Assembly: GCA_038234075.1 (NCBI GenBank)
Contig: JBBSUV010000003.1
Location: 65,136-129,135, forward strand
Source of the DNA: Flavobacteriales bacterium
GTDB lineage: Bacteria > Bacteroidota > Bacteroidia > Flavobacteriales_F > PHOS-HE28
Direction of reading: 5' to 3'
Length of the DNA stretch: 64,000 nt
The notes under the pieces were generated by a model that was not told where the DNA came from, did not search any database, and was given only the letters and a program-made list of their open reading frames with translations. The stretch's first letter is position 1; each line of letters begins with the position of its first letter. The translations under genes were made by a program, and so were the position numbers. This document shows positions 3,395 to 61,100 of the stretch, piece after piece.

Positions 3395-6025
3395 TCAAGA
3401 CTCCTCCACCTCCAGCAGCGCCGCAGGAATGAAGAACAAGTCCAGGTCGTGGTCGTAGGCCAGGAACTTATCGCTCCACGCGGGGCCGAACTTTTCCTTG
3501 AAGGAGCGCAAGCCCTTGTAGTGGGAGAAGCGTGCGATGCGCTCATAAGCGAATTTCAAGGCGCGCTCCGGGAGGTCCTTCGCTTGGGTGATGCCGGACA
3601 TGGGCACCAGCCCGAGGTTCACATGCGTGTAGCCTTCCGCCTTGAAGTGCGCGAAGAGCTTCACCATCAGGAAATCGGTGACGTAGCCCGGAGCATCCTC
3701 AACGGTGCGTAACAGGTCATAAGTAGCCTCGCCCGGCACACCGTCCGGAATGATGTTGGTGAAGGCCAACACACGGCCACCTTCATTCTCCACGGTCAGG
3801 ATCGTATCCTGCCGAAGCTGCGCCTCATCGTACACGCCTTGTGAGAAACCCGCTTCCTGCTTACCCGTTGCCAGCCATTCCGTGCTGACGGACTTCAACT
3901 TCTGGAGCACGCCATCGGACACCGGTGCTGGATAGGTCACCAGTACCAGCCCTTCGCGCTCCGCACGGCTCAGGCTATTGCGCAGCGTCTTCTGGTCCTT
4001 GCCCGCCAGATTGAACGAGGTGAGATCGAGCACGGCCTCTTGGCCGATCGGCAGGACCTTCTTGCCCATGGCCTTCAGTCTTGCAGCATCGGTGGCACCC
4101 ACCCGGTAGTACACCGGCCGCAGGTTGTTCTCCCGGCAATTAATGTCGAACGCATGCACCAACGCATCACGCTCCGCATCGGTCGCCGCCGTCGGCATGC
4201 CCAAGACGATCGCATAGCCCTTGGCCGTTCCGTACGAAACGAATCCTTGGCTGCCTTCGGGCAGGAACAGTTGCTTGTCCGCTAACAGCTTGAACTGGTC
4301 CAATGGCGAATCACCCCATTTCTGCAACATCGCCTTGGCCCTTTCGTGTTCCTCGCTGTCCGTGCTGCTGTCAGCGGTCCATGGGCGCCACAAGGCGTAA
4401 AGGCCGAAGGTGATCGCGCAGGCGAAGGCCACGCGCAGGCCCACGATGAACTCCTTGGCGAAGTGCGTATGCGCCACCAGCCCGTCCTGGCCGAATAGGA
4501 AGACGACCTTCAAGGTGTTCGCGATGGACTGGCGCAAGGTGAAGTCGATGTTGAAGTCGCGCCGATCGAGGAAATAAAAGCCCACGATACCGAAGACCAG
4601 CACGCCACCGATCGAGGCCACCAGCACGGTAATGCCGGTGTAGCGCTTGCGCCGATCGCCTTTCACGCGGTACTGAGCGTGTGTATAGAGCAGCACGAGG
4701 ACCATGATCAGTGCCAGGACGGCCCCCATTATGGCGAAGTGCTTACCGAGGTGTCCGACCATCGAGGCCAGCGCCAGCAGCAGTGCGAACCACCACGCCA
4801 GCCGCAAGCCGCGCACCAGCGCCACGGAGACGAAGAGCAGCAGCAACCCGGCAACCAGGATGGTGATCGAACTGGCATCGATGGTGGCCGAGGGGACCAG
4901 CCCGTGCAACACACGCATGCGGTGGGCAGCCGCAGGGCTTGCTGCGGAGACGATGTTCACCACGCCCAGGATCAATGCCATTAACGCAGGCAACAGGCGC
5001 AGCGTGAGGCTGCTGCGGCCGCGGATGAAGCTGAGCACACCCCAGACCAAGGGCAGCCAGAATTCGAACAAGCGGAAGAGTAGTACGGCGGCGAGCGCCT
5101 GTGCTTCATGCACTCCATAACGTGTAAGTACCACGGTCATCGATACCTCGATCGCGCCGAGGCCGCGCAGGAATGGTGAAGCGATCAACAGCAACACCGC
5201 CACCACATAGCCCACCGCCGCCAGCTCCCAATGCCCACCCAGGCCCAAGGCTTGCATCGCCACATAGAGGTGCGCCATGCCCACGAATTCGATCGCCATT
5301 GAGGCCAGAAGCGTTTTCACCACTTCGCTGCGTTTCACATGGCCTTGGCCCATTTCCTCCAGCACAGCGCCCAAGGAGGGATCCAACTTGGTCGCCCAGC
5401 GTGCCGCCCAGCCTTGGTGTGTCAGCGAGCGGACCAGCCACAACAACAAAACGATGAGCAGCACCAATGCGACAAAGGCGTAGGCGATATCGCTGGAAAG
5501 CCCATGGACCAGGAAGAGGTATCCCAGCACAGGGACCGCCACCACCACCACCGTTATCAGGCCAGCGATGGCGTAGATCGTGGAAGCGAAATGGATCACC
5601 GTTGGACGTTCCCCACGCTCCTCCAAACTGCGGGTGAACAAGGCGAGCGAGGTGAAGCCTCCTGCCGGAAGGAAGACGCTCGCCAGGTTTCTCCGCAGGT
5701 ACAGGTTCACCGCCTCGCCCCACGTGATCCTGCCGCCAACTGCGCGGAAGCCATACACATACATCGCCGCCTGCAACAGCACATAGACCACCATCAACAC
5801 CAAGCCGACCAGCACCCAGCCCGGCCTTGCAGCGCTGAGACCGTGGACGATACCATGCAGTTCATGCGGCTCGTGGCGGAAGAAATAGACAGCGAGCAAA
5901 ATGCTCATGATGCCCATTGTCACCTGGAACGCACGGCCCAGGTCCAAGCGCGCCCAAAGCGTTCTTAAGCGGGACATCCAGGGGTTCTGCCGTTTCCGAG
6001 GTTCATGGACCAAAGGCCGATTCAA
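3395..6025 (-). CDS. mprF: bifunctional aminoacyl-phosphatidylglycerol flippase/synthase (MprF family, lysyl/alanyl-PG synthase)
   Basis: 876 aa. There are about 14 predicted TM helices, followed by a C-terminal LPG-synthase (DUF2156) domain, QFKLLADKQLFLPEGSQGFVSYG...GDLLR-like, ending LAYDHDLDLFFIPAALLE. Confidence 0.75.
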   Translation of the reverse strand: MNRPLVHEPRKRQNPWMSRLRTLWARLDLGRAFQVTMGIMSILLAVYFFRHEPHELHGIVHGLSAARPGWVLVGLVLMVVYVLLQAAMYVYGFRAVGGRITWGEAVNLYLRRNLASVFLPAGGFTSLALFTRSLEERGERPTVIHFASTIYAIAGLITVVVVAVPVLGYLFLVHGLSSDIAYAFVALVLLIVLLLWLVRSLTHQGWAARWATKLDPSLGAVLEEMGQGHVKRSEVVKTLLASMAIEFVGMAHLYVAMQALGLGGHWELAAVGYVVAVLLLIASPFLRGLGAIEVSMTVVLTRYGVHEAQALAAVLLFRLFEFWLPLVWGVLSFIRGRSSLTLRLLPALMALILGVVNIVSAASPAAAHRMRVLHGLVPSATIDASSITILVAGLLLLFVSVALVRGLRLAWWFALLLALASMVGHLGKHFAIMGAVLALIMVLVLLYTHAQYRVKGDRRKRYTGITVLVASIGGVLVFGIVGFYFLDRRDFNIDFTLRQSIANTLKVVFLFGQDGLVAHTHFAKEFIVGLRVAFACAITFGLYALWRPWTADSSTDSEEHERAKAMLQKWGDSPLDQFKLLADKQLFLPEGSQGFVSYGTAKGYAIVLGMPTAATDAERDALVHAFDINCRENNLRPVYYRVGATDAARLKAMGKKVLPIGQEAVLDLTSFNLAGKDQKTLRNSLSRAEREGLVLVTYPAPVSDGVLQKLKSVSTEWLATGKQEAGFSQGVYDEAQLRQDTILTVENEGGRVLAFTNIIPDGVPGEATYDLLRTVEDAPGYVTDFLMVKLFAHFKAEGYTHVNLGLVPMSGITQAKDLPERALKFAYERIARFSHYKGLRSFKEKFGPAWSDKFLAYDHDLDLFFIPAALLEVEES

Positions 6026-13829: not shown

Positions 13830-15302
13830 ATGTCGAAAAGAACAGCATCACCCGGAAAAGGAAAGGCGGTCAGCCCCTTGTTCCGATCGGCCAACTACAT
13901 CAACGGCGTTTGGAAAAAGACCGGTGATGGCACGTTCAACACCGTGCTGGACAAATACCACGGCACTATGCTGGCCAAACTTCCGCAGGCCACAGCGGAC
14001 CAGATGGAAGAGGCCATCGCCGCCGCCCATGCCAGCAGAGGTACGTTGCACGCGCTGAGCGCTGGCGAGCGCAGTCAAAAGCTGGAGGCATTGGCAAAAC
14101 TGATCGAACAGCGCGCGGATGATCTCGCGATGTTGATCGTGCAGGAGGGCGGAAAACCCATTGGCTATGCCAAAGGCGAGATCGCTCGCTGCATCACCAC
14201 TGTGCGCACCGCAGCGGCCGAGGCGGTCCGCTTCACCGGCGAAATGACACCGATCGACTTCGGAGCCGGTGCAGGGAAAACAGCTTTCACCAAGCGCTTC
14301 CCCATTGGCGTCATCGGCGCGATCACTCCTTTCAACTTCCCGCTGAACCTGGTGCTGCACAAAGTGGCCCCGGCGATGGCCGTCGGCTGCCCCGTCGTAC
14401 TGAAGCCTGCCCATCAGGCGCCCTTGAGCGCACTGGCCCTTGCCGGAATGATGGAAGAGATCGGCTGGCCAAAAGGCGCGTTCAGCGTGTTGACCTGTCA
14501 AACACCCGTTGCCGAGCTGATCGTGAAGGACGATCGCGTGGCCATGCTCAGCTTTACCGGCAGCGACAAGGTCGGCTGGCACCTGAAGGCGTTGTCCGGA
14601 AAGAAGAAGGTGGCATTGGAACTCGGCGGTAACGCTGCCGTGATCATCGACAAGGGTACCGACCTGGCAGCGGCAGCCAAAAGCGTCGCCATGGGTGCCA
14701 ACCTCTACGCCGGGCAAACGTGCATCAGCACCCAGCGCATCTTCGTGGTGAAGGCCGAGTTCGAAAAATTCAAGGTCCTGTTGGTGAAGGAATACAAGGC
14801 GCTGAAAGCCGGAGACCCGGCCGATCCGGCTATTTCTGTCGGGCCGATCATCGACTCGGGGCACTTCGAGCGCATCAGTTCCTGGGTGAAGGAAGCGACG
14901 AAAAGCGGAGCGGAGCTTTTAGCGGGTGGCAAGGCCGTGGATGCCAAGCGCAACGTCTACGCAGCGACACTGCTCACCAAGACCAAGCATTCCATGAAGG
15001 TGGACTGCGCAGAGGTCTTCGGTCCCATCGCCATTGTGGAAGCCGTGAAGGACTTTGCCCAAGGCATCGCACGGGTGAACGACAGCAACTACGGCCTGCA
15101 GGCAGGTGTGTACACCAACAACTTCGAACACGTGAAACAAGCGCACGAAGAGCTGGAGGTAGGCGGGGTGATCATCAACGGTATCCCCGGCTTCCGCATC
15201 GACAGCATGCCATACGGTGGCATCAAGGACAGCGGCCTGGGGCGCGAAGGCCTGAAGTACGCGATGGAAGAGATGAGCGAGCCGCGGTTGATCGTTTACT
15301 GA
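13830..15302 (+). CDS. aldehyde dehydrogenase family protein
   Basis: 490 aa with LELGGNAA, a catalytic Cys in YAGQTCIS, and PFNFPL. Confidence 0.85.
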   Translation: MSKRTASPGKGKAVSPLFRSANYINGVWKKTGDGTFNTVLDKYHGTMLAKLPQATADQMEEAIAAAHASRGTLHALSAGERSQKLEALAKLIEQRADDLAMLIVQEGGKPIGYAKGEIARCITTVRTAAAEAVRFTGEMTPIDFGAGAGKTAFTKRFPIGVIGAITPFNFPLNLVLHKVAPAMAVGCPVVLKPAHQAPLSALALAGMMEEIGWPKGAFSVLTCQTPVAELIVKDDRVAMLSFTGSDKVGWHLKALSGKKKVALELGGNAAVIIDKGTDLAAAAKSVAMGANLYAGQTCISTQRIFVVKAEFEKFKVLLVKEYKALKAGDPADPAISVGPIIDSGHFERISSWVKEATKSGAELLAGGKAVDAKRNVYAATLLTKTKHSMKVDCAEVFGPIAIVEAVKDFAQGIARVNDSNYGLQAGVYTNNFEHVKQAHEELEVGGVIINGIPGFRIDSMPYGGIKDSGLGREGLKYAMEEMSEPRLIVY

Positions 15303-30553: not shown

Positions 30554-33307
30554 ATGCCTACATCCGAACCCACTCAAGAGCATTTTAATGCCACCCGGCT
30601 TCGCACGCATACGTGGGACCATCTGAAAACAGCCGTCTCCGAGTTGGCGGTGGCCAAGTCCGGCACGAGCGGATCCGTGAGCGAGGTGGACGCATTACTC
30701 GAGGATCTGCAAGTGATCGAACAGTACTGGGCCTTTCCCGGAAGGGATGCGGTCCAGGGCCTTCGCAACATGCTTGCACGCAAAGAATATGCGGCACTGG
30801 AATCGCGGGTTTTGAAACTTGTGCGCACGTTGGTGAGCGGCCAGGTCCGGTTGAACACGGGCGAACAGGAGGAGCATGCACTGGACCACGAGGATGATAG
30901 CCAGGAACGCCCACGCACGAAGTATTTCGAGGTGCTCTTCGTGGACGACCTGAGCGAGAAGGAGGAACGCGAGCTGAAGGCGAACCTCGCCGATGTCAGG
31001 GAGCCCAACGATCCCTTCACTTATGATGTCATCGTGGTGCCCACGGTGCAGGACGCCCTCATCGCGCTGCTCTTCAACTCCAACATCCAGGCGTGTGTGA
31101 TCCGATACGGCATGCCCTTCGCCTCGGAAAACGCCAAGGGGTTCCTGAAGGACTACATCCGTGCTATCACAGAGGTGGACCTCAGTGATCGCAACAAGGC
31201 GGACATGGGGCCACTTCTCGGCAAGCTCATGCGCTGGTTCCGCCCGGAGGTGGACCGCTACTACGTCACCGACACGCCCGTGAGCGACCTGAAAGACACG
31301 ACGGTGCAGAACTTCCGCCGGATCTTCTACCGTCAAGAGGATCATCAAGAACTGCACCTCAACCTGCTAAGAGGTGTGCAGGAGAAGTACGATACGCCCT
31401 TCTTCACGGCACTGATGGACTACAGCCGCCGGCCAATGGGCGTGTTCCATGCCATGCCGATCTCGCGTGGCAACTCGGTGTTCAAGAGCCGTTGGATCCA
31501 GGACTTCGGTGACTTCTATGGTCGCAACCTCTTTCTCGCGGAGACCTCCAGCACCAGCGGTGGATTGGACTCGTTGCTTCAACCGACCGGCCCGCTGAAG
31601 AAGGCGCAGGAACGCGCCGCGCGCGCTTTCGGGGCACAATTCACCTACTTCGCCACCAATGGCACAAGCACTAGCAACAAAATCGTGCTCCAAGCGCTGG
31701 TGGAGCCGCACGACATGGTGCTGATCGACCGCGATTGCCACAAGAGCCACCACTACGGCTTGGTGCTTTCCGGCGCCTACCCGGTTTATCTCGACAGCTA
31801 TCCGCTACCGGACTACAGCATGTACGGGGCGGTGCCGTTGGAGGTGATCCGGGAAAAGCTGCTCGAGCTGAAACGTGCCGGACGCCTTCACCATGTGAAG
31901 ATGCTGCTGCTCACCAACTGCACCTTCGACGGCGTGGTTTACAACGTGCAGCGCGTGATGGAACAGGTGCTCGCCATCAAGCCGGACATGATCTTCCTCT
32001 GGGATGAGGCTTGGTTCGCCTTCGCGGGCTTCAGCTACATCTTCAAGCAGCGCACCGCCATGTTCAGCGCCGCTCGCCTGCACCGCAAGTACCACAGCGA
32101 TGCCTACCGCGAGGAATACAACGCACACATCGCCTCATTGAAAAAGGGCGAAGAGCCGCGCATGCCCGACCCCGACAAGGTGCGCATCCGCGTCTACGCC
32201 ACGCAGAGCACGCACAAGACACTTACGTCCATGCGCCAGGGCAGCATGATCCACATCTGGGATGAGGACTTCCGCCGCAAGAGCGAGGACAGCTTCCACG
32301 AGGCCTACATGGCGCACACCAGCACCAGCCCCAATTACCAGATCCTCGCCAGCCTCGACGTGGGCCGCAGGCAAGTGGAATTCGAGGGCTACGAGCTGGT
32401 GGAAAAGGCGATCGAGCAAGGCATGCTGCTGCGCCATAAGATCAACGACCACCCCAAGCTGCGGCGCTATTTCGACGTGGTGACCTTGGAAGACCTCGTG
32501 CCCGCCAAGTTCCGTCCCAGTGGGCTGAGGGAATATTATACCAAGGAGAAAGGTTGGAACAGGATCGAGGAGGCTTGGGCGAACGACGAGTTCACCGTGG
32601 ACCCCACCAAGATCAACCTGTACACTGGCAAGACGGGCGTGGACGGTGACACCTTCAAGAACCGGTACTTGATGGACAAGCACCAGATCCAGGTGAACAA
32701 GACCTCGCGCAACAGCGTGTTGTTCATGACGAACATCGGCACCACGCGCGGCTCCGTGGCCTACCTGATCAAGGTGCTCCTCACCATCGCCGACGAGCTG
32801 GAGGCGCGCAACAACGCGCTGAACCACGCCGAGAAGCAACTGCACATCGCACGCATCCGTTCACTCACACAGGAAACGCCACCACTACCGGATTTCAGCC
32901 GCTTCCACGATTCCTTCCGCGCAGTGCCCGGTGTGCCCGGCGGCGACCTGCGCAAGGCCTACTTCCTCTCCTACAACGAGCTGAACTGTGAGTATGTGAA
33001 GATCCGCGATTGCCATGGTAGGATGTGCGATGGGCGTGAGCTCGTCTCGGCCAGCTTCGTCATCCCCTACCCGCCCGGCTTCCCCGTGTTGGTGCCCGGC
33101 CAAGTGGTGAGCAAGGACATCCTCGACTTCCTCATCGCCATCGACGTGAAGGAAATACATGGCTATCGCGAAGATCTGGGCCTGCGCGTGTTCAACGATC
33201 ATGCGCTGGGAAGGCAGCGGACCGGGACCGCTATGGGCGGAATGCGGATCCCAGCGCCGCAGGAAAACGGTAACTCTACAAGTTCGAGCAAGAAGAAAAA
33301 AGCATGA
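30554..33307 (+). CDS. fold-type I PLP-dependent Orn/Lys/Arg decarboxylase family protein with long N-terminal extension and receiver-like wing domain
   Basis: 917 aa. The OKR_DC_1 major domain has TNGTSTSNKIVL and the PLP-lysine motif YATQSTHKTL. A receiver-like wing domain is present (YFEVLFVDD...DVIVVPTVQDALIALL). An extra ~130-aa N-terminal segment precedes it. Confidence 0.75.
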   Translation: MPTSEPTQEHFNATRLRTHTWDHLKTAVSELAVAKSGTSGSVSEVDALLEDLQVIEQYWAFPGRDAVQGLRNMLARKEYAALESRVLKLVRTLVSGQVRLNTGEQEEHALDHEDDSQERPRTKYFEVLFVDDLSEKEERELKANLADVREPNDPFTYDVIVVPTVQDALIALLFNSNIQACVIRYGMPFASENAKGFLKDYIRAITEVDLSDRNKADMGPLLGKLMRWFRPEVDRYYVTDTPVSDLKDTTVQNFRRIFYRQEDHQELHLNLLRGVQEKYDTPFFTALMDYSRRPMGVFHAMPISRGNSVFKSRWIQDFGDFYGRNLFLAETSSTSGGLDSLLQPTGPLKKAQERAARAFGAQFTYFATNGTSTSNKIVLQALVEPHDMVLIDRDCHKSHHYGLVLSGAYPVYLDSYPLPDYSMYGAVPLEVIREKLLELKRAGRLHHVKMLLLTNCTFDGVVYNVQRVMEQVLAIKPDMIFLWDEAWFAFAGFSYIFKQRTAMFSAARLHRKYHSDAYREEYNAHIASLKKGEEPRMPDPDKVRIRVYATQSTHKTLTSMRQGSMIHIWDEDFRRKSEDSFHEAYMAHTSTSPNYQILASLDVGRRQVEFEGYELVEKAIEQGMLLRHKINDHPKLRRYFDVVTLEDLVPAKFRPSGLREYYTKEKGWNRIEEAWANDEFTVDPTKINLYTGKTGVDGDTFKNRYLMDKHQIQVNKTSRNSVLFMTNIGTTRGSVAYLIKVLLTIADELEARNNALNHAEKQLHIARIRSLTQETPPLPDFSRFHDSFRAVPGVPGGDLRKAYFLSYNELNCEYVKIRDCHGRMCDGRELVSASFVIPYPPGFPVLVPGQVVSKDILDFLIAIDVKEIHGYREDLGLRVFNDHALGRQRTGTAMGGMRIPAPQENGNSTSSSKKKKA

Positions 33308-35034
33308 GCAAGAAGAATTTGAAAAAGGCCGCGGCGACCAAAGTGAAGCCTGCTCCAGCCAATAAGAAGGTCGTTGCAAAGAAGAAAGCGGCCACCCCTT
33401 CTCGAGCGATCACCAAGGCCGTGGCCCAAAAGCCACCCGTGGCGAAGCGGGCCGCTGCCAAAAAGAAGGCCGGCCCCGCTGCCCGAACGGCCACCAAGGC
33501 CGTGGTCAAAAAGCGCCCTGTAGTGAAGCGCGCTGTCGCCAAAAAGAAGGCCGGTGCACGCAAGAAGAAAACCGGTCCTTCAGTCCTGCGCGGCGTCAGT
33601 GACATCCGGCGTTTTTTCCACCGCAACGAGACGCCGATCTACTTCATCAGCGCCACCAACTTCAATCTGCTTGGCGCGGACGAATGGATCAAGGGCTTCA
33701 AGTTCATCACCTACATCGACTGCTTCGATGGGATGCATCCCAACCTGATGAGCCCGCAGAACGAGCAGCCGCACGCCGAGTTCCAGAGCATCGAGGACAT
33801 CAACAACTACCTGCTCACCCACAGCACGGTGAAGGACTACATCGAGAAGCGGAAGAAGGGGAAGAGCGCGGGAAAGGCCCTCTTCCTCATGTTCGACGAG
33901 GAGACTGAAAAGCGTGCGCGGAAGCTGGGCTTGGACGTGATCTTCCCCAGCGCCAAGATGCGCACCTTCATGGACAACAAGGTGAACACCAACCGCGTGG
34001 CTGAGAAGGCCGGCGTGCCCTGTGTGCCCTATGTGCTCAGCCCGGTGAAGAACTATGCGCACCTCAATAAGGTGTCGGCGAAGCTTGGCAACGACCTCGT
34101 GTTGCAAACGCCCTTCGGCGATAGCGGCCATACCACCTTCTTCATCAGCAACGAGACGGAATACCGCAAGTATGCCAAGGAGATCGAGGCCGAGAAGGAG
34201 TGCAAGATCATGAAGCGCATCAATTGCCGCGGCGCGGCGATGGAGGCTTGCGTCACGCACCACGGTACGATCGTGGCCCCGCTCATGACCGAGCTGGTGG
34301 GCTTCAAGGAACTGACCCCGTACAAGGGAGGCTGGTGCGGCAACGAGATCTATGCCGAGGCCTTCACGCCCACCATCCGCCGCAAGGCCCGGAAATATGC
34401 GCAGCTCTTCGGCGACCAGCTCCGCAAGGAAGGCTACAAGGGCTACTTCGAGCTGGACTTTCTCATCGACCAGGACAATGGCGAGATCTACCTCGGCGAG
34501 TTGAACCCGCGCATCACCGGCGCCAGTAGCATCACCAACCACGCGGCCTTCGCCATGAGCGACGCGCCGCTCCACCTTTTCCACATCCTGGAATGGATGG
34601 ACAGGCCATACACGCTGAACGTGAACGGGCTGAACCGCCGCTGGGCCAATGCCGAGAACATCGACTCTTGGGGCCAGATGGTGATCAAGCACACCGTGGA
34701 CGACATCCGCAGCGTTACTGAGGCGCCTCGTAGCGGCATCTGGCACATGCGGCCCGACGGTAGCATCCAGTTCCTGCGCATGGACACCCATCGCCGCTAC
34801 GTGGAGACCGAGGACGAGGCCTTCTTCCTTCGCATCACACGCGTGGGCGACTGGCTTTACGAAGGTGCCGACATGGGCATCCTCGTGATGCGCGGCCGGA
34901 TGATGACCGATGAATTCGAACTGCTCGAGCGTTCCAAGAAATGGCTGAAGGCGATCAAGGCGCAGTACAAGAGCGTGTCGCCCGGGGAGGATAAGACCGG
35001 GCCTTTAGAGATCGGTGGTTTCAAGATGATGTGA
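33304..35034 (+). CDS. ATP-grasp family ligase with ~110-aa histone-H1-like Lys/Ala/Pro-rich N-terminal tail
   Basis: 576 aa. The N-terminus is made of KKAAATKVKPAPANKKVVAKKKAA.. repeats. The ATP-grasp core follows (VLQTPFGDSGHTTFFI..., GYFELDFLIDQDNGEIYLGELNPRITGAS). The ATG overlaps the decarboxylase stop as ATGA. Confidence 0.65.
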   Translation: MSKKNLKKAAATKVKPAPANKKVVAKKKAATPSRAITKAVAQKPPVAKRAAAKKKAGPAARTATKAVVKKRPVVKRAVAKKKAGARKKKTGPSVLRGVSDIRRFFHRNETPIYFISATNFNLLGADEWIKGFKFITYIDCFDGMHPNLMSPQNEQPHAEFQSIEDINNYLLTHSTVKDYIEKRKKGKSAGKALFLMFDEETEKRARKLGLDVIFPSAKMRTFMDNKVNTNRVAEKAGVPCVPYVLSPVKNYAHLNKVSAKLGNDLVLQTPFGDSGHTTFFISNETEYRKYAKEIEAEKECKIMKRINCRGAAMEACVTHHGTIVAPLMTELVGFKELTPYKGGWCGNEIYAEAFTPTIRRKARKYAQLFGDQLRKEGYKGYFELDFLIDQDNGEIYLGELNPRITGASSITNHAAFAMSDAPLHLFHILEWMDRPYTLNVNGLNRRWANAENIDSWGQMVIKHTVDDIRSVTEAPRSGIWHMRPDGSIQFLRMDTHRRYVETEDEAFFLRITRVGDWLYEGADMGILVMRGRMMTDEFELLERSKKWLKAIKAQYKSVSPGEDKTGPLEIGGFKMM

Positions 35035-35157
35035 GCGCAGGCGTACCACAAGGTTTTTATACCACGAAGGACGCTAAGGACACGAAGGAAATAGTAGACC
35101 AAAGGAGAGAACGAATGATGACGAGTGCCGAACTGTTGAACTGTGCACTTCCCGTTA

Positions 35158-35544
35158 ATGACTGCTGACGAACTTTCCCATATTGTGATAGGACGGGCCA
35201 TTGCGGTTCATAGCGACCTAGGGCCGGGATTGTTCGAGAAGATCTATGAGAAGGCGTTGGCCTATGAACTGAGGAATCTGGGCTTTGCTGTTCAAGACCA
35301 GTTGGAGCTGCCTGTGATCTATAAGGGCCAGAACTTGGATATGGGATATCGGCTTGACCTTCTGGTTGAAGGGAAGTTGATCATTGAGGTGAAGGCGATA
35401 TCGGCATTTGACGAGATACACATGTCGCAAGTCCTGACCTATCTTAAACTCCCCGGTTGTACCCTTGGTCTCCTGCTTAACTTCAATGTGGGCCAAATGA
35501 AAAAAGGGATCAAGCGGATTGCTTTGGGTGATCCGAACAAATGA
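35158..35544 (+). CDS. GxxExxY protein (PD-(D/E)XK-like)
   Basis: It carries the GLFEKIYEKALAYEL motif and LDLLVEGKLIIEVKA. Confidence 0.75.
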   Translation: MTADELSHIVIGRAIAVHSDLGPGLFEKIYEKALAYELRNLGFAVQDQLELPVIYKGQNLDMGYRLDLLVEGKLIIEVKAISAFDEIHMSQVLTYLKLPGCTLGLLLNFNVGQMKKGIKRIALGDPNK

Positions 35545-35663
35545 TGCGATCAAGAACCCGAACATTCTCATGAGCGTATTTTTCGCTGATATTCTCCGTC
35601 CATTCATGAGACTTCGCCTCACTCCTTCGTGTTCTTCGCGTCCTTCGTGGTAGTCATTCCCTC

Positions 35664-36656
35664 ATGTACATCCATCTAAAACTCATCCACGAACCGCTTC
35701 CCTCAGAGCGTTGGCTGCGGTTCTTCAACCGCGTCTGGCCGCTCTACCTTGACTGGTTCGTGAGCGAGGGCCATGGAAAGCGCGCAGAGCTGCCCGAATG
35801 CCGGAACGCCTTGGCCGTGCACATGCCGGAGCTTCTGCCCTTTTACGACCGCATGTGCGAGCTGGCCGGTGGCGGTGACCTCGAGTCGCGCTTCCTGAGC
35901 ATGTGGTGCCCGCCCGCCTACATGGCCGGCTGCTCTCAGGCCGCATGGGTGCGCGGCAATCCCACCTTGGTGCGCAACTATGATTACGATCCGCGCCTTT
36001 TCGATGGGCGCATGCGCTATACCGAATGGCTGAAGCCGGTGATCAGTATACAGGACAGTGCGTGGGGCGCGCTGGACGGCATGAACGTCGACGGACTTGC
36101 AATTGCACTGGCTTTCGGTGGAAGGAAGGTGAGCGGAGTCGGCTTCGGCATCCCGCTGGTGGTGCGCTATGTGCTGGAGACCTGCTCCACCACTGCAGAG
36201 GCGATGGCCGCCCTCAGCCGCATCCCCGTGCACATGAGCTACAACGTGATCGCCTTGGACAAGGACGGGAACTACGCGGTGGCCTACCTCAACCCCGATC
36301 GGCCCGCCAAAGTGGTGAAGAAGCCCGTGTGCACCAACTTCCAGGAACAGGTGGAATGGGACGAATACGCCGCCTTCACCCAGACCTTGCAGCGGAACGA
36401 CTACCTGGAGGATATGCTGCGCGACGAGAATGTGGACCGTGCCCAATTGATGAAACGCTTCCTGAAGCCGCCCCTCTATCACCAGCAATACCTCCGCGGC
36501 TTCGGCACCCTCTACAGCGTGGCCTACGATCTCAAACGCAGGAAAGCCCGTGTCTTCTGGCCCGATCAGCATATCGAGGTCGGCTTCAACGACTTCGTAG
36601 AGCAGGACCTGAAGGTGGTCCTTTTGCGGCCTGCGGGACGCTATATGGCCAAATAG
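35664..36656 (+). CDS. C45-family autoproteolytic Ntn-hydrolase (acyl-CoA:6-APA acyltransferase / choloylglycine-hydrolase-like)
   Basis: 330 aa. The AGCSQAAW processing site has a Gly-Cys nucleophile. The C-terminus is a CGH/AAT-like fold (NVIALDKDGNYAVAYLNPD). Confidence 0.6.
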   Translation: MYIHLKLIHEPLPSERWLRFFNRVWPLYLDWFVSEGHGKRAELPECRNALAVHMPELLPFYDRMCELAGGGDLESRFLSMWCPPAYMAGCSQAAWVRGNPTLVRNYDYDPRLFDGRMRYTEWLKPVISIQDSAWGALDGMNVDGLAIALAFGGRKVSGVGFGIPLVVRYVLETCSTTAEAMAALSRIPVHMSYNVIALDKDGNYAVAYLNPDRPAKVVKKPVCTNFQEQVEWDEYAAFTQTLQRNDYLEDMLRDENVDRAQLMKRFLKPPLYHQQYLRGFGTLYSVAYDLKRRKARVFWPDQHIEVGFNDFVEQDLKVVLLRPAGRYMAK

Positions 36657-52150: not shown

Positions 52151-55100
52151 TTAGCGGATCAAAGTCACTTTACCCGAGCGGTCAAAGTCCTGGCCTTCCA
52201 CCGATGTGGCGACGACCGTGTAGACGTACACCCCGTTGATCTCCGGCTTCCCGTTGTGGGTGCCGTCCCATCCGAACTCAGGGTCGCTGGTCTCGAAGAC
52301 CATTTCGCCCCAGCCGTTGAAGACCTTCAGTTCCATGGTCTTGAAGGGGCCACCGCGGACGAAGAAGACGTCGTTCACTCCATCGCCGTTCGGGCTGAAA
52401 GCGTCCGGTAGTTTCGGTGGCACGATCTTGTTCTCGGTGATCGCGATGAGCATGGAATCGGAGGCGGTGCAGCCTGCAGCATTGGAGACCGTCTGCACGA
52501 TGATGTACTGACCTCCCTGGGTATAGGTGTGCGTGGGATCCTGGGAGAGCGAACCCTGACCATCACCGAAGTTGTAATGCCAGCCGTTGCCTCCGAAGGA
52601 ATTGTCCTCGAACACGATCGACTCACCAGTGAAGGCATCCCCGGTGAAGGAGAAGCCTGCCGTGGGTGCGAACATCACCTCCACTACTTGGCTGGTGGTG
52701 GCGCTACAGCCGTTCTGTGCGAATACTGTGAGCGTTACCGGATACTGTCCCGCTCCAGCGAAGGCGTTGCCAGCCTGTTGACCAGCTGCAGTGCTGCCGT
52801 TGCCGAAGTCCCAGTTCCAGCCGATGATGGGCGAACCCGTGGTGGTGCTGGCATCGGTGAAGGCCGTGTTCGATCCTGCACAAGCGTTGCCGAAGTTGAA
52901 GGCAGCGTTCAGCGGGTTCACGAACGACAGCTTCACGGTATCCACCGCTGCGGCGCAGAAGAGGTCACCCGTGGTGGTGAGGAACAGTTCCACTTGTTGC
53001 AATTGGGAGTCGCCGGTGCTGGGCTGGTAGGTGGCATTGGCCGTGGTGTTGTTCGGCAGGAAGATGCCGGAACCGTTGGTGGTCCATTGCAAGCCCGTGG
53101 CGCCGTTGTAGATACCTGCCAGCTGCACATCCGCCGAGGCGTCGCAGGTGGTAATGTCCGTGCCTGCGTTCACCGTGGAAGGCTGGTGCATGTTCACTGC
53201 CAGCGTATCGGTGTGCGCGGGGCAGCCCATGTTACCGGTGGTGGTGAGCACGAAGCTCAGTTGCTGGAACACCAGGTCCGGTGCGCTCGGCACGTAGCTC
53301 GCGTTCAAGGCATCGGCATTCGGCAGGAAGGTGCCTGTGCCGTTCGTGGTCCACGTGCCACCGCTCACTCCTGTGATGTTTCCGGCCAGTTGGACGATGC
53401 CACCATTGGCACACACGTCCAGGTCAACACCAGCGTTCGCGATCCGTGTGGGGCCCACTCCGATGAAGAGCGAATCCGATGCGTTGCCGCAGGTGCCCGT
53501 GCCGTAGGCCGTGAGGATCAGGTGTACGCCACCTGCGATGCTGTCATTGGCCGTAGGTGTGTAAGTAGCGTTCAGCGTATTGGCATTGGGGCTAAAGGTG
53601 CCCGTGCCTGCGGTGATCCATCGCACCAACGAATCGTTCTGCGCGGTGCCATTCAGTTGGATCGGCGACAGGCCATTGCAGAGCAACAGGTCCGTGCCGG
53701 CGTTCACCGTTGGTGGCACATGGTAGCTCACCACCAAGGTGTCCTTTCCGGCGGGGCAGCCCGCGTTGTTGGTAGTGCTCAGCACCAGGGAAATGTCACC
53801 GATCACGAAGTCCGCTGGGCCCGGGATGTAGGTGGCGTTGAGCGCCATAGCTGAAGGGCTGAAGGAACCCGTACCCGTGGTGCTCCACATGCCCGTGGTG
53901 GTACCTGCAACTGCGCCGTTCAGCGAAATGTTAGGCGCCGTGCTGCAAGTGATCACGTCTTGACCGGCCTGTGCAGAGAGCCCGCCGCCGAAGGTGATGG
54001 TGAGTGCATCCGACACCGCGCTGCAAGGCAGGGTGCCCGTGGTGGTCACGGTGAGCGTCACGGTTCCCAGTGTGCTATCAGCTACGCTTGGGTAGTAGAG
54101 CGTGGCCAAGGCATTGGCATCGAAGAAGGTGCCCGTGCCCGAAGTCGTCCACGTACCGCCAGGCGCATTGGCTGCATTGGCGGCCAACTGTACAGGTGCG
54201 CTCGTGCAAGCGACCACATCGCTACCGGCCATGATGTTCGGCACGGCCCGCAGGTTCAACGTCATGGCATCGGAGGAAGCCGCGCAGGAGCCGTTGGTGA
54301 TCGTAGTGATCGTCAACTGCACTGAACCCGCTGCGATATCCGCATTGCTGAGCGTGTAGGTAGCGTTCGGATCCGTGTTGTTGCTGAAGGATCCCGAGCC
54401 GGAAGTGCTCCACTGGATGCCTTGTGCTCCGCCGCTGAAGTTGCCCGCGAGCTGGGCGATCGGTGAGTTGACACAGAGGCTCTGATCCGGACCGGCGTAA
54501 GCAAAGCTGGTGTTACCGAAGGTCAGCGTCATCTGATCGCTACCGCTGGGGCAAGTGCCCGTGTTGGTAGCGGTGAACGTGAGCACAACCGAGCCGTTGG
54601 CCACATCGGCCGCGGAGAAGAAGTACTGCGCGTTGAGCACATCGGCATTGGGCTGGAAGGTGCCCGATCCGGTGGCTGTCCAAGTGCCCGAAGGCGATCC
54701 GTTCTGAACGGTGCCCAACAGATTGGCATGGTCGGAGAGCACACACACGCTCTGGTCCGGCCCAGCGCTCACGATGATTCCAGCGGTGAGATAGATCGTC
54801 ATCGCATCGCTCACCGCGCCGCAGTTGCCGTTGTTCAAGGAGGTGAGCGTGAAGTTGATCTGACCCGCAGCGATGTCCGCAGCACTTGCCGTGTACGTGG
54901 TGTTCAGTGCACCTGCGTTGGCGATGGTGCCGGTGCCTGTGGTGGTCCACTGGCCCACCGTGGTGATGCCGGATATCATTCCGCTCAGGTTGAACTGGCT
55001 CACTTGGTCACAGTAGGTCTGGTCCGCTCCTGCGTTCACATAAGGTGCTGGTGTCAGCTGCAGCGTCATGGCATCGCTGGCGTTGTTACAGCTGTTCACC

Positions 55101-58100
55101 GCGTTCAGCGTCAAGGTCAGCGAGCCGATGGCGGTGTCGATGTTGCTGGGAATGTAGGTGGGCGTCAGCACGCTGTTGCTCGGATAGAAGGAACCCGTGC
55201 CGGAGGTGGTCCACTGCACTTGGGTGGCATCGCCGCTGAGCGTTCCAGTGAGCTGCACCGTGGCGTTGTTCGCGCAGAAGCTCAGGTCCGGACCAGCGTT
55301 CACGTTGCCGGAAGGTTGGATGGCGATATACACCGTATCCACAGCCGCGGTGCATGCACCGGTGTTGGTGGCGGTGAGCACCAGCCTCACACCGTGTGCT
55401 AAGGAATCCTGGGCGCTGGCGTGGTAGATGTTGGCGAGCGCATCAGCCGGGTTGGCGAAGCTGCCCGATCCCAACGTGCTCCACACGCCGGTGGAAGAGG
55501 CACCGCTCACTTGGCCATTGATCAGCACGTTCAGGTTACCGAAGCAGACCACTTGATCGGCCCCAGCATTCGCGCTGGAGACCGGCACGATGGTCACGCT
55601 CATCTGATCCATGGCATTGTCACAGCTGTTCACGCTCCAGGTGAAGGTGAGCGTGCCTTGGGTCGCATCGCCCGGAGCCACTTGGTACACCGCGTTCGCA
55701 GCACTGGCGTTCGGGTTGAAGGAACCTGCACCGTTCGTGGTCCAGTGACCTTCAGTGGCGTTACCGCTGATGCTACCGGCCAGTTGCACGGTGGCTTGGC
55801 TTGCGCAGATGCTTTGGTCAACACCGGCGTTGGCGACGGCGTTCGGAAGGATGGTCAAGGTCATCATGTCCGACACCACGTTGCAGAGACCGTTGTTGGT
55901 GGAAGTCAAGGTGAGATCCACAGTGCCGTTGAGTGAATCCAGTGCACTGGCCATGTACGTGGCATTCAGCGTGGTGGCGCTCGGGAAGAAGGTGCCTGTG
56001 CCGCTGGTGGTCCAGGTACCGGTGGTGGATCCACCTTGCACGCTGCCCGTCATCGGCACTTGCAGTGCACTGGAACAGGTGGTGACGTCCGGACCGGCGC
56101 TCACCACAGGGGCGGGCGTTACGGCGAGCATCACTTGGTCCACTACGGAGAGGCAGTTGCCATTGCCAGTGGTGGTGAGCGTAAGCGCCACGCTGCCGGT
56201 CTGCAGTTCGAAGCTCGAAGGCACGTACTGTGCGTTCAGTGTCTGTGCGTTCGGCGTGTAGCTGCCGAGGCCACCGCTCCATTGTGCGCCACCGGCCACC
56301 GTGATCGCACCGTTCAGCGTTACCAGCGGGTTGTTGGCGCAAACGTCCATGTCCATACCGGCATTCACTGTGGGCGCTGGCGTGAAGGTGATGGCGAGAG
56401 TATCGCGCACAGCGAAGCAATTGCCGTTGCCGGTGGACGAGAGATAGAGGTTCAAGCTACCCGAAGCGATCTCCAATGCCGTGGGCGTGTACACGGGACT
56501 GAACACGTTGTTGGAAGGGCTGAAGGTGCCGCTTCCACCGGACCATGCACCACCGTTCGCGTTGTCCACGTTTCCGCTGAGCTGCACTGCCGCGTTGTTG
56601 GCGCACACAGCCTGATCCATGCCGGCATTCACCACAGGTGCATCGGTGAAGTAGACCGTCATCTGGTCGACGACTGCAGCACAGAATGTGGTGCCCGTGG
56701 AAGACAGCGTGAAGGTGATGGAACCTGCCGTTACCTCCGCCTCAGTGGGCGTGTACTGCAGCGCCAGCGAGGTGTTGTTCGGGAAGTAGTTGCCATTTCC
56801 TCCGGTCCATTGGCCGCCCGAGGCGTTGCCCACAAAGCCGTTCAGCTGGAAGTTCGGGTTGTTGCCGCAGATCTGTTGATCCGGTCCGGCGTTCACCACA
56901 GGAACAGGATCCACGATGATCACGAGGCTGTCGCGCACCGCATTGCAATTCCCGTTGCTGGTGGAGGTGAGCACCAAGGACATCTGTCCAGCGGCGATCT
57001 CAAGCGCAGTAGGCTGGTAAGTGGCGTTCAGCGTCTGGGCGTTAGGCGTGAAGACACCTGCACCGCCGCTCCACGCGCCGCCATTGGCCACGGTGATCGC
57101 ACCGGCCAATTGCACCTCGGAACTGTTGGCGCACACATGAGCATCCAAGCCCGCATTCACGATTGGCGCCGGAGTAAAGTCCAAGCGCACGGAATCGCGG
57201 GAGGCCAAGCAGCCGCCGTTGCCGGTCGAGGTGAGATAGAGCCACAATCCGCCTGCGCCTACTTCAGCAGCGCTCGCCGTGTACACCGCGTTCAGTGCAG
57301 TGGCATTCGGACTGAAGGATCCAGCACCGCCGCTCCATGTACCGCCGGTAGCATTGGTCACCTGGCCATTCAACGAGGCAGCGATGTTGTTGGCGCAAAG
57401 GGTTTGTGCGGCACCGGCCTCCACTACTGGAGCGGCGGTGATGTTGATGGTCACTTGAGCACTCACTGCATTGCAAAGTCCGTTGCCGGTGCTGGTCAAG
57501 GTGACCGTGGCCGTGCCTGCAATTACTTCAGCAGCGGAAGGTGTGTAGATGGCGCTCAGGCTGTTCGCATTGGGCGAGAAGCTGCCTGCACCGGTCCATG
57601 TTCCGCCCGTAGCGTTCTGCACCGATCCGGCCAGTTGCACACTCGGGTTGTTCGCGCAGGACTGCATGGGTTGACCAGCGTTCACCACTGGTGCTGGCGC
57701 GATGGTCACCACCATCTGGTCGTTCACGGCGCTGCACAGCGCATTGCCCACTGTCGTCAAGGTCAACGTGACAGTGCCTGCGGAGATCTCCGCTGCGGTC
57801 GGTGTGTACACTGCATTCAGGATGCCGCTGTTCGGCGAGAAGCTGCCCGCTCCACCGCTCCAGATGCCGCCCGTAGCTACGGTAACAGATCCGTTCAATT
57901 GCAAGGTGGCGTTGTTCGCGCAGATGCTCGCGTCCAGTCCAGCGTTGGCCGTGGGCGCAGGTGTGAAGGTGTAGGTCACTTCGTCGGTTACCGCCGTGCA
58001 ACCGCTGTTGCCCGTGGTGGTAAGCACCAGCGTGGCGCTCCCTGCGGCGATCTCACCTTGTGAAGGTGTGTACACCGCGTTCAGTGCATTGGCGTTCGGG

Positions 58101-61100
58101 CTGAAAGTTCCTCCTCCGCCGCTCCACGTTCCGCCATTGGCGACGGTGACACTGCCGGCCAATTGGATAGCCGCATTGTTCGCGCAACGCACACCATCCA
58201 CACTGGCGTTGGCCGTCGGCGAAGCGGTGAAGGTGATCAGCACTTCATCAGATACCGGCACACAATTGCCGTTACCGATAGTGGTCAAGGTCAAGGTCAT
58301 GGTACCGGCTGCGATCTCCGTTGCGGTCGGGATGTACACCGCGTTCAGCGATGCGATGGAAGGCGTGAAAGTGCCTGCACCACCGCTCCATTGTCCGCCA
58401 CCAGCACCGCTAACGGAACCACCGAGCTGCACTTGTGCATTGTTCGAGCAGACGAAGAGGTTGTTGCCCGCGTTGGCGGTTGGCGAAGCAATGATCGTGA
58501 TCGTCATCTGGTCGTTCACCGCGTTGCACAAGCCGTTCTGGGTGGTCGTGAGCGTGAGCGTTGCAGTACCCAGGGCCACCTCAGCAGGATTGGGGTGGTA
58601 GGTCGCGTTCAGCGTGTTCGCATCGGGCGACCAAGTGCCACCGCCGCCGCTCCATACACCGCCAGTGGCGATGGTCACCGCGCCGTTCAGGATAACTGAA
58701 GGATCGTTGGCGCAGACGGTGCGGTCCACTCCTGCATTCACCGTTGGGCTTTGCGAGAAGTAGATCGTCATGGCATCGTTCACCGGTGTGCAGGTGCCGT
58801 TGCCAGTGCTGGTGAGGGTAAGCGTCACTGAGCCATTCGCGAGTTCAGTAGTGCTTGGGGTGTACACCGCATTCAGCGCGTTGATGCTTGGTGAGAAGCC
58901 GCCCGTGCCACCGCTCCAGCTGCCGCCCGTGGCGTTGCTGATGGAGCCGGTCAGTTGGACACTGGAGTTGTTCGAACAAACCGTGCGATCGATACCAGCC
59001 TCCACAACTGGTGCAGGTGCGAGGGTGATCACCACTTGATCGGACACGACGTTGCAAGTTCCGTTGTTCGTGGAGGTCAGTGTCAATGTGACGGTGCCTG
59101 CGGCGATCTCACCCAAGGTCGGGGTGTAGGTAGCGTTCAGGTTGTTCGTGCTGGGGTTGAAAGTGCCCGAGCCGCCGCTCCACACACCGCCACCCGCGTT
59201 GTTCACGACACCAGCCAGTTGTGCGGTTGGGTTATTGGCGCACACGGTGAAGTTGTTGCCGGCGTTCACAACCGGTGCAGGAGAGATCGTGATCACGATC
59301 TGGTCTATCACCGGATTGCTATTGCCATTGCCCACGGAGGTGAGCGTAAGCGTCACGCTACCTGCGGCGATCTCGGCCGCTGAGGGATAGTAAGTGGTGT
59401 TGAGTGAAGTGTTGTTCGGCGTGTAGCTGCCGGTGCCGCCACTCCAGATACCACCCGTTGCGATGGTCACGCTGCCACTTAGGACAACGACCGCATTATT
59501 GCCGCAGATCACTTGGTCCGGACCGGCGTTGGTCGAGGGCGCATCGCTGAAGGTGATGATCATGGCATCGGTGGCCGCAGCGCAGGAACCGTTGCCCGTG
59601 GTGGTCAAGGTCAAGGTCACGCTGCCGGAAGCGATCTCCGCTGGCGTGGGCGTGTACACCGCGTTGGTGGTCGTGTTGTTCGGGTTGTAAGTACCCGCGC
59701 CGCCGGACCATACCATACCGCTGGCGATGGAATAGGAACCAGCCAAGGTGGTCGCTGCATTGTTGGCGCTTACAGATTGGTCAACGCCTGCATTGGCTAC
59801 CGGAGCCGTGGTGAAGGTGATCTGCACTTGGTCGGATACCGCTGCGCAATTGCCGTTGCCAGTGGTCGTGGCAGTTAGCGTCACCAAGCCGTTGGACACC
59901 TCGATCGTCGAGGGTGTATAGGTGATGTTCTGTGCGGTGCTTCCTGGTGAGTAGAGGCCGCTTCCACCGGACCACTGCACGCCAGTGGCCACCGTGATGG
60001 CGGCGCTCAGCATCGCGCTACCGTTGTTCCCGCAGAGGGTCTGGTCCACACCGGCGTTCACTGTCGGTGCAGGCGTGATAGTGAAGTGCACCTGGTCCGT
60101 TACCGGGTTGCAGGTGCCGTTTCCGGCCGAGGTGAGCGTGAGTGTGAAGCTACCAGCGGTGATCTCTGCCGCATTCGGTGTGTAGGTTGCATTGAGTGTG
60201 ATGCTGTTCGGGCTGTACGTACCGTTGCCGCCGCTCCAAACCCCGCCCACTGCTCCGTTCACGCTTCCGTTAAGGGTGACTGCTGGCGAATTCGCACAGA
60301 CAATGCCATCCAGTCCTGCGTTCACGATCGGCGCAGGTGTGTACGTGATGATGCGGGTATCGCTGGCAGGTGTGCAGTTGCCGTTGCCCGTGGTGGTCAA
60401 GGTGAGCGTCACCATGCCCGCAGCGATATCGCCAGGTCCGGGGTTGTAGGTCGCGTTCAATGTGTTCGCGTTCGGCGTGAAGCTGCCGGTGCCACCGGTC
60501 CAAGTACCGCCAGTTGCGATCACCACGCTGCCGTTCAGGGCCACGCTGCCATTGTTCGCGCAACGGGTCACATCAGGTCCTGCGTTCGCGGAAGGCGCAT
60601 CGGTGAAATTGAGCACCACTTGATCGATAGCCGCATTGCAAAGGCCGTTGCCGGTGGTGGTGAGCGTAAGCGTTACGCTGCCGTTGGTGATCTCCATCGC
60701 TGTCGGCGTGTAGATCGCGCTCATGTTCGTGGTGCTCGGATCGAAGGTGCCGTTGCCGCCGCTCCAGATTCCGCCAGTTGCCACGGTGAAGGCACCGGAC
60801 AGGGAGGTCACTGGATTGTTGGCGCAAAGCACACGATCAGAACCGGCGTTCGCCGTAGGTCCGGGAGTGATCGAATAGGAAACTTGATCGCTCACTGCGG
60901 TGCAATTGCCATTGCCCACCGTGGTAAGAGTTAGTGTGACGCTGCCTGCAGTACGCTCCGCAGCGCTGGGCGTGTAAGTGGCGTTGAGTGTGCTACTGTT
61001 CGGGCTGTAGGTACCGGTTCCTCCGCTCCAGATGGCTCCGGAAGCACCGTTGACAACACCGGCCAAGATGAGCGCCGAGTTATTCGCGCAGACCGTTCCG

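Follow-up and report, generated by a model that had tools for sequence, protein, structure and literature searches.

The stretch of Flavobacteriales DNA analysed here (64,000 nucleotides of contig JBBSUV010000003.1, hereafter the window) carries on its forward strand, at 33304..35034, an open reading frame (ORF) of 576 residues whose product begins MSKKNLKKAAATKVKPAPANKK and joins two parts of very different character: a lysine-, alanine- and proline-rich N-terminal tail and a conserved ATP-grasp catalytic domain. A preliminary description had likened the tail to histone H1, and had proposed that it might tether the enzyme to a polyanion or even serve as the enzyme's own substrate. The neighbours of the ATP-grasp gene in the window are genes for a decarboxylase, a GxxExxY protein, a C45-family enzyme and a TPR protein; the features discussed below, in the window and in related loci, are collected in Table 1.

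Table 1. Location of the features discussed, in the window and in related loci of other genomes
Feature	Sequence	Coordinates	Strand	Basis or remark
Polybasic acid-free N-terminal tail (residues 1-94)	window	33304..33585	+	composition, AlphaFold2, no Pfam match, ortholog tails
81-nt (27-aa) tandem duplication in tail	window	33393..33554 (copies 33393-33473, 33474-33554)	+	self-comparison at offset 81
ATP-grasp catalytic domain, NF005096 (PRK06524, labelled 'biotin carboxylase')	window	33586..35034	+	NCBIfam profile
Long-form Orn/Lys/Arg-decarboxylase-fold enzyme, Rv2531c type	window	30554..33307	+	Pfam OKR_DC_1 9.4e-80; PDB 9n0n
Short basic decarboxylase C-terminus SSSKKKKA, directly 5' of ATP-grasp start	window	33281..33304	+	seen in sequence
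GxxExxY / PD-(D/E)XK_3 protein, 133 aa, between ATP-grasp and C45 genes	window	35143..35544	+	
C45-family (AAT) autoproteolytic acyltransferase/hydrolase, third conserved gene	window	35664..36656	+	Pfam AAT 9.5e-31; NCBIfam C45_proenzyme 1.9e-46
MprF-like lysyl-phosphatidylglycerol synthase	window	3395-6025	-	LPG_synthase_TM + LPG_synthase_C
Aldehyde dehydrogenase, succinate-semialdehyde dehydrogenase (SSADH)/lactaldehyde-dehydrogenase-like	window	13830-15302	+	below all equivalog cutoffs; 15 kb upstream of cluster
Giant ORF, at least 3942 aa	window	52151-63979	-	PKD domains + C-terminal CHU_C type IX secretion signal
P0122-type gene	L085	8001-9947		start supported by overlap with upstream gene
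VOC C-terminal tails	L004; L006; L008; L012; L013	271-399; 3239-3367; 4731-4865; 2940-3068; 4646-4774		
Decarboxylase polybasic C-terminal tail, 54 aa	L048	1382-1546		Ignavibacteriae metagenome-assembled genome (MAG)
Stand-alone histone-H1-like protein, 240 aa, ~170 aa K/A/S/T-rich	L013	12583-13305	+	~3 kb downstream of cluster, related Flavobacteriales MAG

A polybasic, acid-free tail on an ATP-grasp enzyme

Residues 1-95 of the ORF (MSKKNLKKAAATKVKPAPANKKVVAKKKAATPSRAITKAVAQKPPVAKRAAAKKKAGPAARTATKAVVKKRPVVKRAVAKKKAGARKKKTGPSVL) comprise 27 lysines, 24 alanines, 11 valines, eight prolines, six arginines and six threonines, with neither aspartate nor glutamate; at 28% K, 25% A, 8% P and 0% D+E, the K/A/P-rich, H1-like composition that first drew attention to the tail is plainly there. 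The net charge of these 95 residues is +33, that of the 481 residues (96-576) that follow +2; only four of the 95 are bulky hydrophobics, and none is aromatic. Chance can be excluded as the source of such a composition, since a six-frame scan of the 64-kb window found no further polybasic segment of at least 40 residues. The tail ends at about residue 94 (~33585), the alignment to the NF005096 profile beginning at residue 87, and the conserved domain opens with the motif L-[KR]-G-[VI]-S-D-I-R-R-F-F, which is near-invariant across orthologs. The interval flagged at the outset, 33304-33640, captured a real tail but ran too far, its final ~18 residues (LRGVSDIRRFFHRNETPI) belonging to the conserved domain.

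The tail had also been described as a run of degenerate KKAA, AKKK and PV(A/V)K repeats. Such motifs do occur (KKAA twice, AKKK three times, P[VA][AV]K twice), together with one clear tandem duplication whose two copies are 78% identical over 81 nucleotides; its local alignment score of 71 compares with 18.4 ± 3.4 in codon shuffles, and not one of 300 shuffles scored as high. The duplication is visible only by direct offset analysis, as Tandem Repeats Finder (TRF) reported no repeats between 33250 and 33700, and the count of regular KPAA, KPVA or [ST]PKK repeats in the tail is zero. Searched on its own against Pfam at E-values up to 10, the tail returned only a chance match (CCSAP, E 2.1). Judged by its sequence, then, it is not a member of the H1, Hc1 or AlgP/PhaF KPAA families, though its composition is H1-like, and the initial assignment to the H1/Hc1/AlgP type has to be given up.

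Two features of the start site bear on whether the tail is made at all. The upstream decarboxylase gene ends in a TGA that shares the tetranucleotide ATGA (33304-33307) with the ATG at 33304, and among the closest homologs in the database (120 proteins, 70-96% identical) nearly all start with MSKK or MAKKK and have basic N-terminal extensions of 12-126 residues, almost without D or E; these starts are also kept in the species-level loci described below. Because of this translational coupling, and of the orthologous MSKK/MAKKK starts at the same place, the ATG at 33304 is a credible true start and the tail is taken to be translated. An internal methionine does exist only far downstream, as had been pointed out: the next in-frame ATGs encode residues 144 and 149, both within the conserved domain. 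Five in-frame GTG codons and one TTG lie inside the tail (residues 6, 14, 40, 46, 67 and 74), and may act as minor starts. In the AlphaFold2 (AF2) model, residues 1 to ~90 are coil, without secondary structure and with a predicted local distance difference test (pLDDT) score below 50, so that the tail is predicted to be intrinsically disordered. The model as a whole is of moderate quality (mean pLDDT 66, predicted template modelling score 0.62), because the underlying alignment was small (63 sequences) and narrow (each 71-88% identical to the query).

The proposed fusion to an ATP-grasp domain is borne out by the rest of the protein, which is a full-length member of the NF005096 (PRK06524) family: the match scores 756 bits (cutoff 684; E 1.1e-227) and places residues 87-559 on positions 8-478 of the 493 in the profile. 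The tail lies outside this family definition, as the profile starts only at about residue 87. The ATP-grasp motif E-x-N-x-R is present, E399-L-N401-P-R403 aligning with E288-M-N290-T-R292 of biotin carboxylase, and E399, N401 and R403 are invariant in two of our alignments (A1 and A3). The name 'biotin carboxylase' attached to this family is nonetheless unsupported, reflecting superfamily resemblance only, and is misleading as an annotation. AccC and pyruvate carboxylase models score 29-35 bits against cutoffs of ~600-1100, and the similarity detected by phmmer to a true biotin carboxylase (PDB 4mv1) is remote (E 5e-07). Biotin carboxylases are also the best Foldseek matches, at TM-scores of 0.3-0.4 and 11-14% identity; given the moderate AF2 model, these matches are generic for the superfamily and uninformative on the substrate. 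The catalytic Glu296 of biotin carboxylase, which sits in Q-V-E-H after E-x-N-x-R (E. coli numbering), corresponds to Ala407 here (T405-G406-A407-S408), and no biotin carboxyl carrier protein (BCCP), biotinyl or carboxyltransferase domains were seen among the neighbours, in the window or in the loci of other genomes. The host is an ATP-grasp ligase, cytoplasmic and otherwise ordinary. Our literature searches found nothing relevant on the PRK06524 family or on a decarboxylase/ATP-grasp/C45 cluster, nor on lysine-rich disordered tails in Bacteroidetes.

A variable tail on a conserved enzyme

To follow the tail across bacteria, we scanned for the locus with an eight-sequence alignment (A2), the 24-sequence alignment A1 being too diverse for this use, and kept one genome per species. 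The resulting 80 loci span Flavobacteriales, Cytophagales, Chitinophagales/Saprospiraceae, Balneolaceae, Ignavibacteriae, Trueperaceae, Anaerolineales, and Alpha- and Gammaproteobacteria. Across these species the N-terminal extension ranges from 3 to 117 residues, and in 42 of the 80 it forms a polybasic tail of at least 25 residues, with a mean K+R content of 33% and D+E of 3.9%. Cultured carriers include Salegentibacter (88-117 residues), Psychroflexus (71-83), Aequorivita (63), Brumimicrobium (60) and Flavobacterium cellulosilyticum (31). At the other extreme, the extension is down to 4-8 residues (MAARRK, MPKKT or MVKKT) in proteobacterial orthologs, although the operon is the same, and in some Chitinophagales the N-terminus is just 'MKT'; all in all, these and other short forms have 3-10 residues, yet their domains are 60-75% identical and the operon is unchanged. 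Even among close relatives the length is unstable, as P0003 and P0004, with domains 88-90% identical, have tails of 28-29 residues against 94 here. Absence of the tail from orthologs had been named beforehand as an outcome that would speak against it, and the survey delivers this by half: the tail is missing from Proteobacteria, and present, at very variable length, in most Bacteroidota. The suggestion that fusions of this kind are rare does not survive the same survey, and similar tails are found on distant homologs as well, including one (P0131) in another gene context.

The make-up of the tail also shifts with the genome that encodes it. Its alanine fraction rises with genomic GC content (rho 0.52) and its T/S fraction falls (rho -0.38), while K+R stays at ~33%; in low-GC flavobacteria the tails consist of K/T/S/N instead. 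Because alanine content tracks genomic GC, the K/A/P 'H1-like' look is best read as the form that a generic disordered, polycationic tail takes at high GC. By this comparison the tail is shown to be accessory, lineage-specific and fast-evolving, partly built by tandem duplication, and dispensable for the conserved catalytic core; charge and disorder alone are conserved in it, the sequence is not, and it is for charge that it appears to be selected.

Basic AKP tails recur on the distant homologs P0121, P0131, P0175, P0201, P0231 and P0262, of which P0121 keeps the decarboxylase/ATP-grasp/C45 context and P0131 lies among unrelated genes. In four actinobacteria-like homologs (P0122, P0151, P0163 and P0179; 36-53% identical), the basic tail is replaced by a short, Arg-flanked hydrophobic N-terminal segment, followed by an acidic, Pro/Ala/Glu-rich linker of 70-140 residues; a conserved LP(P/S)GWE motif marks these homologs, and is clear in P0122, P0151 and P0179. 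The ATP-grasp N-terminus is a hot spot at which disordered modules, or modules of a localisation type, accrue. Separately, an N-terminal transmembrane helix called in the close homologs P0109 and P0111 was rejected as probably an artefact of gene calling: the start as called lies 29 nucleotides inside the upstream gene, and an internal methionine gives a normal short N-terminus.

How particular is the tail to this enzyme? We surveyed polybasic segments of at least 40 residues in 1.19 Mb of related loci (~1,100 genes, a rough estimate), leaving out a basic stretch within the decarboxylase domain as well as short or antisense ORFs that we took to be spurious. Beyond the ATP-grasp tails, the survey yielded a VOC enzyme in five genomes, one decarboxylase C-terminus and one H1-like protein, which stands alone. 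The VOC/glyoxalase-like enzyme belongs to the same operon and, in five high-GC Flavobacteriales genomes, ends in an AKP-rich basic tail of 37-47 residues; elsewhere it ends 'SKN' directly after the domain, and in L013 it has a basic N-terminus too. Its occurrence alongside the ATP-grasp tail hints at co-localisation of the two enzymes in this high-GC clade. The tailed decarboxylase, in L048, adjoins an ATP-grasp protein with just 10 N-terminal residues, so that the polybasic stretch can occupy either side of the gene junction.

What the tail might do

By analogy with known polybasic tails, and with moderate confidence, we favour a role for the tail as an accessory tether that would keep the enzyme, through non-specific electrostatic contacts, at some abundant polyanion inside the cell. 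Nucleic acid, as nucleoid or RNA, is the most probable such polyanion and polyphosphate (polyP) a possible one, and the effect of the tail would fall on localisation or local concentration, not on catalysis; the similarly tailed VOC enzyme of the high-GC Flavobacteriales would be held on the same polyanion. Nucleic acid is favoured as the target, with polyP as the alternative, because the composition is acid-free, K/A/P-rich and almost without hydrophobics. Precedent is given by AlgP and PhaF, whose K/A/P-rich disordered tails (~+35 to +55) are bound to DNA or RNA; AlgP is also found at polyP granules (PMC9239181, PMC12818456). The ATP-grasp tail resembles their KPAA C-terminal domains in being K/A/P-rich, nearly acid-free, predicted disordered and attached to a folded domain, and its charge of +33 stands beside +35 for PhaF and +55 for AlgP. 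It differs in being N-terminal, in having no KPAA/KPVA periodicity and no detectable homology to them, and in its host, a metabolic ATP-grasp enzyme where AlgP and PhaF are structural or regulatory; binding in the present case is proposed from the analogy with these two proteins. In actinobacteria and Deinococcus, Lys/Ala/Pro-rich tails likewise add non-specific nucleic-acid affinity to HupB/HU, Ku and topoisomerase I. These tails share with ours a lineage-specific, length-variable, polybasic and low-complexity character, but their hosts act on DNA, whereas the present one is a ligase of small-molecule type, encoded in a decarboxylase/amidase operon. An extracellular target, such as the anionic cell-surface polymer suggested earlier, is unlikely, since nothing resembling a hydrophobic signal peptide comes after the tail.

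Several considerations weigh against such a tether. The regular KPAA/SPKK motifs of proven nucleic-acid-binding tails are missing, and there is no obvious reason for a metabolic ligase to sit on nucleic acid. The difference between 28 and 94 residues among near-identical enzymes is in keeping with most of the tail being under weak selection or none, and the hydrophobic anchor and acidic linker that some actinobacteria-like homologs have at the same position point to the membrane, not the nucleoid. The estimate of operon specificity, moreover, covers flanks of ~17 kb rather than whole proteomes.

Perhaps the tail has no specific partner at all, and is mostly the product of neutral low-complexity growth at an A-rich translation-initiation junction, a possible, if unlikely, account. 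Lys-codon-rich sequence around a Bacteroidota start without a Shine-Dalgarno sequence would expand by slippage or duplication and be tolerated at the terminus, acting at most as a tuner of solubility or expression. The range of lengths across species and between near-identical enzymes, the internal tandem duplication and a composition that follows genomic GC are all in keeping with this. So are the K-rich C-terminus of the upstream decarboxylase (Bacteroidota orthologs of which usually end in short K/R runs), the long polybasic stretch on the decarboxylase side of the junction in L048, and the fact that even tail-less orthologs start with MAARRK, MPKKT or MVKKT. Neutral growth does less well with the exclusion of acidic residues (0/95 here; 3.9% on average in 42 species), since A-rich drift would also yield GAA and GAG, and the tail, at a GC of 0.60 in a genome of 58-60% GC, is not A-rich. 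Nor does it account readily for a tail that is kept across several Bacteroidota orders, that is regained in distant homologs without the decarboxylase junction (P0131), and that in the VOC enzyme sits at the C-terminus, away from any start-codon junction.

An electrostatic tether to the anionic inner leaflet of the membrane, for instance near a substrate or product transporter, would have the advantage of accommodating those homologs (P0122, P0151, P0163 and P0179) in which a hydrophobic segment and Pro/Ala/Glu linker stand in the position of the tail, the start of P0122 being backed by overlap with the upstream gene. The MprF-like synthase encoded in the window (3395..6025) also implies that the membrane contains anionic phosphatidylglycerol (PG) and that this lipid undergoes charge modification. 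We nevertheless consider a membrane tether unlikely: the tail has few bulky hydrophobics and no aromatics, AF2 predicts no helix in it, the hydrophobic segments of the actinobacterial homologs are short (13-17 residues) with a putative topology, and the apparent transmembrane segment of P0109/P0111 is discounted for the reason given above.

A more ambitious version of the polyanion tether is rather improbable, but worth spelling out. H1-like tails could form a shared 'address label' that co-localises several enzymes of a γ-aminobutyric acid (GABA)-linked amide-forming pathway on a polyanionic scaffold, be it nucleoid, RNA or a polyphosphate condensate, in what would amount to a charge-coded bacterial metabolon. 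The candidates would be the ATP-grasp enzyme with its N-terminal tail, the VOC enzyme with its C-terminal tail and, occasionally, the decarboxylase with its C-terminal tail, and a membrane anchor would give the same solution in other phyla.

Docking of the tail onto an operon partner such as the decarboxylase, forming a metabolon for substrate channelling, is distinctly improbable. The decarboxylase and ATP-grasp genes show translational coupling and lie side by side in nearly all species, the polybasic stretch can lie on either side of their junction (L048), and the VOC partner is tailed too in one clade. However, tail charge correlates positively with the charge of the decarboxylase (rho 0.61) and of the catalytic domain (rho 0.42), over points that are not phylogenetically independent; as these correlations are positive, not negative, there is no sign of a complementary acidic partner. 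The decarboxylase of the window is itself not acidic, tail-less orthologs keep the same operon, and P0131 is tailed without an adjacent decarboxylase.

Finally, ATP-grasp enzymes can modify protein tails, as RimK does on S6 and LysX on LysW, and the flexible tail here offers 27 lysine amines for a self-modification of this type, e.g. acylation by the amine or acid of the pathway; yet this notion, raised in the preliminary description, is very unlikely indeed, as RimK and LysX modify another protein, at acidic residues of its C-terminus, whereas this tail is N-terminal, in cis, without any carboxylate to activate, not conserved in sequence and reduced to 3-10 residues in many orthologs with a highly conserved domain and operon, and no RimK or LysX model is among the 17 NCBIfam matches to the protein (E up to 0.01).

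As a low-complexity appendage, the tail is of a common type. Nucleoid proteins and nucleic-acid enzymes are known to carry H1-like polybasic tails; here one sits on a metabolic ATP-grasp ligase and has been gained repeatedly, and it is this recurrence, shared with a second enzyme of the operon in one clade, that is new. If the tail does act as an electrostatic tether to a polyanion, tail-mediated tethering or condensation would extend to bacterial small-molecule metabolism. Experimental follow-up is warranted both for the operon-specific pattern and for the decarboxylase/ATP-grasp/C45 cluster with its wide distribution.

The surrounding cluster and the rest of the window

The gene upstream of the ATP-grasp ORF encodes a protein similar over its full length, extra N-terminal domain included, to M. 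tuberculosis Rv2531c (PDB 9n0n_A; E 1.3e-244, residues 14-901 on 23-920). Rv2531c is reported to be an L-glutamate decarboxylase feeding the GABA shunt, and its family was reported in 2026 as a 'cloaked' glutamate decarboxylase (PMC13506015). The active-site residues proposed for L-Glu recognition are H405, K406, R576, T606, R718 and N731 (PMC13506015); the window enzyme keeps H405, K406, R576, T606 and N731 as well as the pyridoxal phosphate (PLP) lysine K570, and has lysine in place of R718. These similarities identify the upstream gene product as a long-form decarboxylase-fold enzyme of the Rv2531c type, with the residues proposed for glutamate recognition in place except at position 718.

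A decarboxylase gene stands directly 5' of the ATP-grasp gene in nearly all 80 species, and a C45 gene lies downstream in most. Other loci have a CN-hydrolase gene upstream and, in about half, a VOC/Ble-like gene too; neither was found in the window, and the flanks annotated for its closest relative (L001/L002) show neither. In L003 the cluster is extended by genes for a GABA-transaminase-like protein and an aldehyde dehydrogenase, with which a glutamate/GABA connection fits. In L085, the homolog P0122 (52% identical) has an M20 deacylase, a GATase-like protein and a C45 gene as neighbours and no decarboxylase; as this locus keeps ATP-grasp and C45 without the decarboxylase, these two form the conserved core, usually amid amidases. 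Taken together, the genes for CN-hydrolase, VOC/Ble-like protein, Rv2531c-type decarboxylase, ATP-grasp and C45 enzymes make up a widely conserved and apparently undescribed cluster, which occurs in Bacteroidota, Balneolaceae and Proteobacteria (window 30554-36656; L003-L083). Since a tightly coupled ATP-grasp/C45 pair accompanies an enzyme of the glutamate decarboxylase family, the cluster's gene content suggests a Glu/GABA-derived amide metabolite as its product.

A scan for promoters and terminators around the operon gave results at or below shuffle expectation, and Rfam had no matches in the whole window. The GxxExxY gene, which separates the ATP-grasp gene from the C45 gene in the window, is absent from this position in the closest relative (L001/L002). 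In L001, an Aldedh-family gene (118-1590) equal in length to the aldehyde dehydrogenase gene of the window lies ~1.5 kb upstream of the decarboxylase, and the same family flanks the cluster in L003. At the far end of the window, the giant ORF with its PKD domains and CHU_C signal probably encodes a surface protein secreted by the type IX secretion system (T9SS).

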